Source: Escherichia coli
GTDB lineage: Bacteria > Pseudomonadota > Gammaproteobacteria > Enterobacterales > Enterobacteriaceae
NCBI RefSeq assembly: GCF_050920415.1
Contig: NZ_CP169309.1
Direction: 5' to 3' (one strand)
DNA length: 64,000 nt
Positions 63,579 to 63,644 of this stretch are shown piece by piece. Below the pieces are notes generated by a model, which saw nothing but the letters and a program-made list of their open reading frames with translations, was not told where the DNA came from and made no database searches. Both the position numbers and the translations under genes were made by a program. The first letter of the stretch is position 1. Each line of letters starts with the position of its first letter.

Positions 63579-63644
63579 AAGAATAAAATATTGTGATGTA
63601 GTTTCGGGGGAAGATTGAAGATTCCCCCGACGTTGGGAGAAGTT

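Follow-up and report, generated by a model that had tools for sequence, protein, structure and literature searches.

A conserved stem-loop without a U-tract between idnT and idnR in Escherichia coli and related enterobacteria

The spacer between idnT and idnR in the idn (GntII) locus of Escherichia coli carries a strong GC-rich stem-loop that is not followed by a U-tract, and the comparison of orthologous spacers indicates that this hairpin is under purifying selection as a structure in at least eight enterobacterial genera. The probable role of the hairpin is to modulate, at the RNA level, idnR with respect to idnDOT. The reading we favour, with a probability of about 0.4, is that it would act as a barrier to 3' exonucleases, allowing the idnDOT mRNA to outlast that of idnR.

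The stem-loop in E. coli

The DNA analysed, hereafter the window, is a stretch of 64,000 nt from E. coli, 100% identical to strain MFDS1022581, in which the idn locus occupies positions 59595 to 64000 approximately. The hairpin TCGGGGGAA-GATTGAAGA-TTCCCCCGA occurs once in the window, at 63604-63630, and consists of nine perfect base pairs (63604-63612 with 63622-63630), six of them G-C, closing a loop of 9 nt. Folded in isolation it reaches -16.3 kcal/mol, with a z-score of -3.1 against dinucleotide shuffles, and it is the dominant feature when folded in a context of 101 nt. The preliminary description had placed a perfect hairpin with an 8-bp stem at 63604-63629, 26 bp from the idnT stop and 16 bp from the idnR start; the perfect pairing and the start at 63604 are confirmed, but the stem is 9 bp long and ends at 63630, and the two distances become 25 nt (stop codon at 63576-63578) and 14 nt (ATG at 63645). 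That description did not mention that the hairpin abuts the Shine-Dalgarno (SD) sequence of idnR, nor that the idnO-idnT junction has a conserved hairpin of its own, followed by a T-rich tail. The 66-nt idnT-idnR spacer and its borders are organized as follows.

63576-63578, + strand: idnT stop codon (TGA), closing the ORF 62259-63578, in agreement with the RefSeq idnT annotation of identical records
63579-63603, + strand: AU-rich single-stranded spacer from the idnT stop to the hairpin (sequence and folds)
63604-63612, + strand: 5' arm of the stem-loop, UCGGGGGAA (sequence and fold)
63613-63621, + strand: 9-nt loop, GAUUGAAGA (fold), of which neither sequence nor length is kept among genera
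63622-63630, + strand: 3' arm of the stem-loop, UUCCCCCGA (sequence and fold)
63635-63639, + strand: SD sequence of idnR, GGGAG, 4 nt past the stem and 5 nt ahead of the ATG (sequence)
63645-63647, + strand: idnR start codon (RefSeq annotation of identical records and alignment with K-12)

The identity of both genes and the 66-nt length of the spacer are confirmed by the RefSeq annotation of identical E. coli records. Two peculiarities were seen around the idnR start. At its second codon (63648-63650), idnR reads CTC (Leu) in the window, as it does in the single listed strain with an exact match to the window, and CGC (Arg) in K-12 and most E. coli genomes. On the minus strand, an ORF of 253 aa initiated at TTG runs antisense to idnT (62891-63652), its start falling within the start region of idnR; we presume it to be spurious.

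The window contains 12 perfect hairpins whose stem is 9 bp or longer, compared with 2.3 +/- 1.2 in dinucleotide shuffles, and the probability that one falls by chance in a given 66-nt spacer is about 0.002. From these counts alone a chance placement between idnT and idnR is unlikely, though not impossible, and the remaining doubt disappears because the hairpin is conserved in other genera (see below). The 11 other hairpins of the window include those at 28936-28965, 33101-33133 and 53649-53676; among them are a 12-bp stem (AAAGGATACCCT/AGGGTATCCTTT), an 11-bp stem (CTGAATCGGGA/TCCCGATTCAG) and an 11-bp stem made only of A-T pairs.

The idn locus is accessory in E. coli, where it was found in 2054 of 5426 complete genomes, always on the chromosome. 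In 2053 E. coli genomes the hairpin was detected at exactly one place per genome (E <= 10); it is identical over 35 nt in 2037 of the 2053, and 15 genomes have a single mismatch in this 35-mer. No annotation was found under the hairpin in the E. coli genomes, and scanning positions 62000-64000 with the Rfam 15 covariance models (E <= 10) gave no match at this locus. A repeat family of the REP/BIME or MITE type was rejected, the element being single copy in each genome with only one match in the window at up to 3 mismatches. In one strain, E. coli 2013C-4830, each arm is one base shorter (equivalent of 63606-63628): a G is missing from the 5' arm and a C from the 3' arm, resulting in G4/C4 instead of G5/C5 with a perfect 8-bp stem kept. 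This symmetric loss could be a compensated or template-switch change, or an error of homopolymer sequencing or assembly.

Pairing across enterobacterial genera

Searching one genome per species for IdnR gave 27 loci with an idnT-idnR junction, belonging to eight named genera (Escherichia, Citrobacter, Salmonella (diarizonae), Trabulsiella, Phytobacter, Kosakonia, Enterobacter and Mangrovibacter) and to one MAG. A further hit, L033, is a 265-bp contig of an assembly named 'Alkalicoccobacillus porphyridii' (coverage 0.79) with 98% protein identity to E. coli IdnR, and is almost certainly a contamination. All the spacers retrieved from the 27 loci contain a strong GC-rich hairpin, with energies of -16 to -29 kcal/mol, and whole-spacer folding z-scores were negative in all 14 representatives (-0.1 to -4.7). 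The arms of the stems (5' arm / 3' arm) are the following.

E. coli: UCGGGGGAA / UUCCCCCGA
C. freundii complex: CCGGGGAGC / GCUCCCCGG
C. amalonaticus S646: CCGGGGAAC / GUUCCCCGG
Salmonella: GGGGGCG / CGCCCCC
UBA3516: CCACGGGGAAG / CUUCCCCGUGG
Phytobacter and Kosakonia: stems of 15-16 bp
Enterobacter: ACCGG(A)GGCGC / GCGCC(G)CCGGU
Trabulsiella: CUGAGGGAAAG / CUUUCCCUCAG
Mangrovibacter: GGGUGGCA / UGCCACCC, closing a longer structure

A core run of G in the 5' arm is common to most of the orthologous hairpins, Enterobacter and Mangrovibacter being the exceptions. The distance from the idnT stop to the hairpin, 25 nt in E. coli, ranges from 9 to 26 nt among genera.

We looked at the pairing in several ways. 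When the stems of E. coli and the C. freundii complex were compared in a pair table anchored on the outer pair, four of the nine pairs had changed on both sides and none was broken. In an alignment made with a covariance model, 84.6% of the cells were paired compared with 76.4% in column shuffles, and the covariation score was 0.248 compared with 0.126 (0 of 500 shuffles reaching the observed value in both cases); five of the nine pairs showed double changes and the true register was better than every slid register. These covariation figures are conservative in one respect and biased toward the model in another, and the sequences are related; stems of unequal length fall out of register both with MAFFT and with the covariance model, which weakens column-based covariation, and alignment-free folds and the outer-anchored pair table were used alongside for this reason. 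A test independent of alignment was provided by the ten sequences of the C. freundii complex, which are free of gaps. There, none of the 18 stem positions varied as against 8 of 10 in the loop (Fisher p = 1.4e-5), and as against 204 of 332 third-codon positions of idnR (p = 7.7e-8). Thus compensatory changes keep the pairing and the stem is more constrained than the loop, as expected of a selected cis-acting RNA structure, and it is because of the compensatory changes, the invariant stem beside a variable loop and the negative z-scores that we regard the structure as being under purifying selection.

Candidate functions of the stem-loop

In all lineages the hairpin starts at least 9 nt past the idnT stop (at least 10 nt except in Mangrovibacter) and ends at least 10 nt ahead of the AUG. 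It is therefore clear of both codons, and ribosomes ending idnT or initiating idnR need not melt it.

We infer the following sequence of events for a 3'-exonuclease barrier and its effect on the idnR:idnDOT ratio. The polycistronic idnDOTR mRNA would carry a stable stem-loop occupying the ribosome-free gap between idnT and idnR, which RNA polymerase would pass without being stopped. After an endonucleolytic cleavage or a Rho-dependent termination within the idnR segment, the hairpin would block the 3'-to-5' exonucleases PNPase and RNase II and decay would halt there; a stable idnDOT message would remain, the idnR part would be turned over faster, and the autoregulatory IdnR would be produced at a far lower level than the enzymes and the transporter.

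Stable stem-loops devoid of U-tracts are known to define steady-state 3' ends in E. coli and to protect them against PNPase and RNase II, these ends arising once Rho has terminated transcription, or the RNA has been cleaved, at a point further downstream (PMC6061677). The idn hairpin is a candidate for this protective class, being a stable stem-loop without a U-rich tail, and it shares with the stem-loops of Dar & Sorek 2018 (PMC6061677) a high GC content, a terminator-like size and energy, the lack of an A-tract upstream and the presence of a C>G region downstream; it differs from them in that it is internal to an operon and abuts the next SD. The C>G region is located 150-300 nt into idnR, where the C/G ratio is 1.6-1.75 (operon 90th percentile 1.25, operon maximum 2.0), a modest excess that is compatible with a putative rut site. 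Intercistronic stabilisers leading to differential expression within an operon include the malE-malF REP of malEFG in E. coli and the pufBA-pufLMX hairpins of Rhodobacter. Like the idn hairpin, these are stable hairpins that separate upstream cistrons in high demand from a downstream one that is needed less; they act as 3'-exonuclease barriers, a role that we only infer for the idn hairpin, which, unlike the malE-malF REP, is single copy per genome and has no REP consensus. The decay barrier also fits best with the one invariant of the spacer, namely a strong hairpin somewhere within it, since in Trabulsiella and Mangrovibacter the strong hairpin has shifted to 35-37 nt from the AUG. Against this reading, the hairpin is biased toward the SD in 10 of the 12 lineages (10-14 nt from the AUG), which a pure barrier does not predict.

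This bias is the main point in favour of a translation-level element, which would act on the 30S platform or standby region 5' of the idnR SD and set the initiation rate, and which is the main rival, possible although somewhat doubtful. It could damp translation by covering the standby site and keeping ribosomes that leave idnT from re-initiating; alternatively, it could insulate the ribosome binding site (RBS) by locking the C-rich 3' arm, which would be complementary to the idnR SD if left unpaired, away from it. In the 10 lineages concerned, the hairpin ends 0-5 nt ahead of the SD and the distance to the AUG is held within 10-14 nt, while that from the stop to the hairpin varies from 10 to 26 nt. 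A strong, optimally spaced SD is conserved beside the hairpin in these lineages, all of which have a purine-rich GGAG/GAGAG motif at the SD position; none is evident in Mangrovibacter. In silico, replacing both arms lowered the cost of opening the region from -15 to +12 by 2-12 kcal/mol in 9 of 11 lineages, and freeing the 3' arm alone raised it above that of the mutant without hairpin in 10 of 11, although these thermodynamic figures depend on the ribosome footprint assumed. Several points argue against a translational role. Trabulsiella and Mangrovibacter keep a strong hairpin far from the AUG, the SD-adjacent remnant in Trabulsiella being only a degenerate CCGG stem of 4-5 bp, and a weak SD would be a simpler route to less translation, yet the SD is strong. 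Sequestration of the SD was looked for as well. Neither the SD nor the AUG was found paired inside the conserved helix (the E. coli SD lies 4 nt outside the stem), and a translational switch or RNA thermometer of this type was rejected, as the outer helices reaching the SD are weak and differ among lineages.

A more specific proposal is that the hairpin, with its SD-like G-rich 5' arm and its anti-SD-like C-rich 3' arm, would act as a translational gate dedicated to the activator of the operon itself, uncoupling idnR initiation from idnT translation and fixing the gain of the IdnR positive feedback; we hold this to be rather unlikely. If true, engineered RBS insulators and standby-site hairpins would have in this hairpin a natural, conserved counterpart, and it would not be a decay barrier. 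The standby-site model is reportedly that of Espah Borujeni et al. (2014), and RiboJ carries an insulating hairpin. Such hairpins likewise end 0-5 nt 5' of the SD and are preceded by a single-stranded region; they were engineered or individually tested, whereas the effect of the idn hairpin on the energy of RBS opening is a prediction, and in two idn lineages the hairpin lies far from the SD. The decay barrier and a tuning of translation are not mutually exclusive.

We then considered transcription. The hairpin resembles intrinsic terminators and attenuators in being an intergenic, GC-rich stem-loop of 9 bp and -16.3 kcal/mol, and differs from them by the absence of a U-tract in E. coli and in every orthologue. 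Taking about 5 or more U in the 8 nt past the stem as a U-rich tract, none was present in the 12 lineages: the E. coli tail, CGUUGGGA, has 2 U and the orthologues have 0-3. The absence of a T-run noted in the preliminary description is thus borne out, as is its view that this is not a full terminator. Its proposal of an attenuator or RNA-stability element holds as regards a selected structure, an attenuator acting by partial intrinsic termination being the least favoured version. The terminator scan did not call the idnT-idnR hairpin. An opposite-strand terminator was rejected too, since the minus-strand tail, AAACUACA, offers no A-tract or T-tract to serve that strand.

The same operon does have a U-tailed hairpin, one junction upstream. 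It lies between idnO and idnT (GCAGCGC-GAAA-GCGCTGC, 62212-62229) and is followed by the tail TTTTCTGG (to 62239). Its stem sequence is invariant in seven genera apart from one substitution in one Enterobacter, and its tetraloop is variable (GAAA, CCAG, GCAA, GUAA, UUCG, UCCG, UGCG); the tail is T-rich (UUUUCU or UUUUUU) in most genera, Phytobacter and Kosakonia being the exceptions. The probable function of this hairpin is partial termination inside the operon, by which idnT and idnR would be lowered relative to idnDO, and the idn lineage uses U-tailed hairpins where that function is selected. Because a U-tract is lacking at idnT-idnR while the same operon has the U-tailed hairpin at idnO-idnT, intrinsic termination is unlikely to be the function that maintains the idnT-idnR hairpin.

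The idnO-idnT junction has some other particularities. In Citrobacter L008, L010 and L015, an insertion of about 125 bp, a long imperfect palindrome resembling ERIC/IRU, separates the idnO-idnT hairpin from the idnT SD, and shorter variants of it are present in L006, L007 and L012. Enterobacter L030 and L031 have about 130 bp of extra sequence upstream of the conserved hairpin, within which lies a strong canonical terminator (AAAGCTGAAAATCAAGxGATTGGTTTTCAGCTTTTTT). Adams et al. 2021 list a Rho termination region antisense to idnO (MG1655 4493012, + strand; window about 62195-62260, minus strand), and antisense transcription across idnT is therefore implied in K-12.

A transcriptional attenuator, by partial termination or hairpin-stabilised pausing in spite of the missing U-tract, appears improbable. 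The size and energy of the stem-loop are those of terminator hairpins, and a conserved T-tailed hairpin at idnO-idnT makes a graded read-through along the operon plausible; moreover, Dar & Sorek remark that hairpins with a weak U-tract may terminate intrinsically but inefficiently, with Rho as a backup (PMC6061677). On the other hand, not one of the 12 lineages has more than 3 U in the 8 nt past the stem, the upstream room for a U-tract that was available to selection was never used, and the terminator scan, as mentioned, is negative. As for pausing, most stems lie 14-16 nt from the U of the AUG. The spacing of his-type pause hairpins is roughly 11 nt, and such a pause at the start codon was rejected as the main reading. 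In the published record, our full-text literature searches found nothing on the idnT-idnR junction, and entries for idnT and idnR are absent from the 3'-end and Rho tables of Adams 2021 and TERMITe, the idn operon being uninduced in the media used there.

That the hairpin would instead protect a 5' end, RNase E cutting upstream of it to release a stabilised, processed monocistronic idnR mRNA, seems very improbable. The 25-nt upstream spacer is AU-rich and unpaired in E. coli, and the hairpin adjoins the idnR RBS in most lineages. However, the AU-rich character is not conserved (Citrobacter has GACGGUCAUCA), and stabilising a regulator over its enzymes would be contrary to the usual stoichiometry. 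A separate idnR transcript starting in the spacer, with the hairpin as its 5'-terminal stabiliser, was rejected: the sigma-70-like site scan of both strands of the spacer found none, and by eye the -10 candidate TAAAAT (63584-89) has no usable -35.

Finally, a palindrome acting at the DNA level with no role in RNA, either a protein operator or an inverted repeat maintained by template switching (quasipalindrome), is the most improbable reading: the G and C lost symmetrically in 2013C-4830 are exactly what a template switch would produce and in many lineages the two strands fold with about equal stability, but the stem is invariant (0 of 18 positions) where 61% of synonymous sites vary, which argues for purifying selection and not just mutation bias. 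Since pairing and not sequence is conserved, a sequence-specific protein operator appears unlikely. An IdnR/GntR operator at the hairpin was rejected as the sequence here is not conserved and the known IdnR/GntR sites are upstream of idnK and idnDOTR (PMC4052901). Sense-strand G-U wobbles in the stems of Phytobacter, Kosakonia and C. amalonaticus make the sense fold better by 3-7 kcal/mol, and overall this asymmetry favours the sense strand weakly.

The enzyme/regulator boundary

Besides activating its own operon, IdnR represses the main gluconate (GntI) genes, and its dose relative to the idn enzymes thus sets a positive-feedback switch. A low share of idnR makes sense for an activator that regulates itself and is a repressor of the GntI genes as well, and a conserved structure at the boundary between enzymes and regulator is the obvious candidate for setting the IdnR:enzyme ratio. 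What is new here is the comparative evidence; the element is unannotated yet ordinary in kind, and it leaves current understanding unchallenged. It offers a clean example of an intercistronic hairpin without a U-tract that shows covariation, to which the U-tailed hairpin of the idnO-idnT junction provides a contrast.
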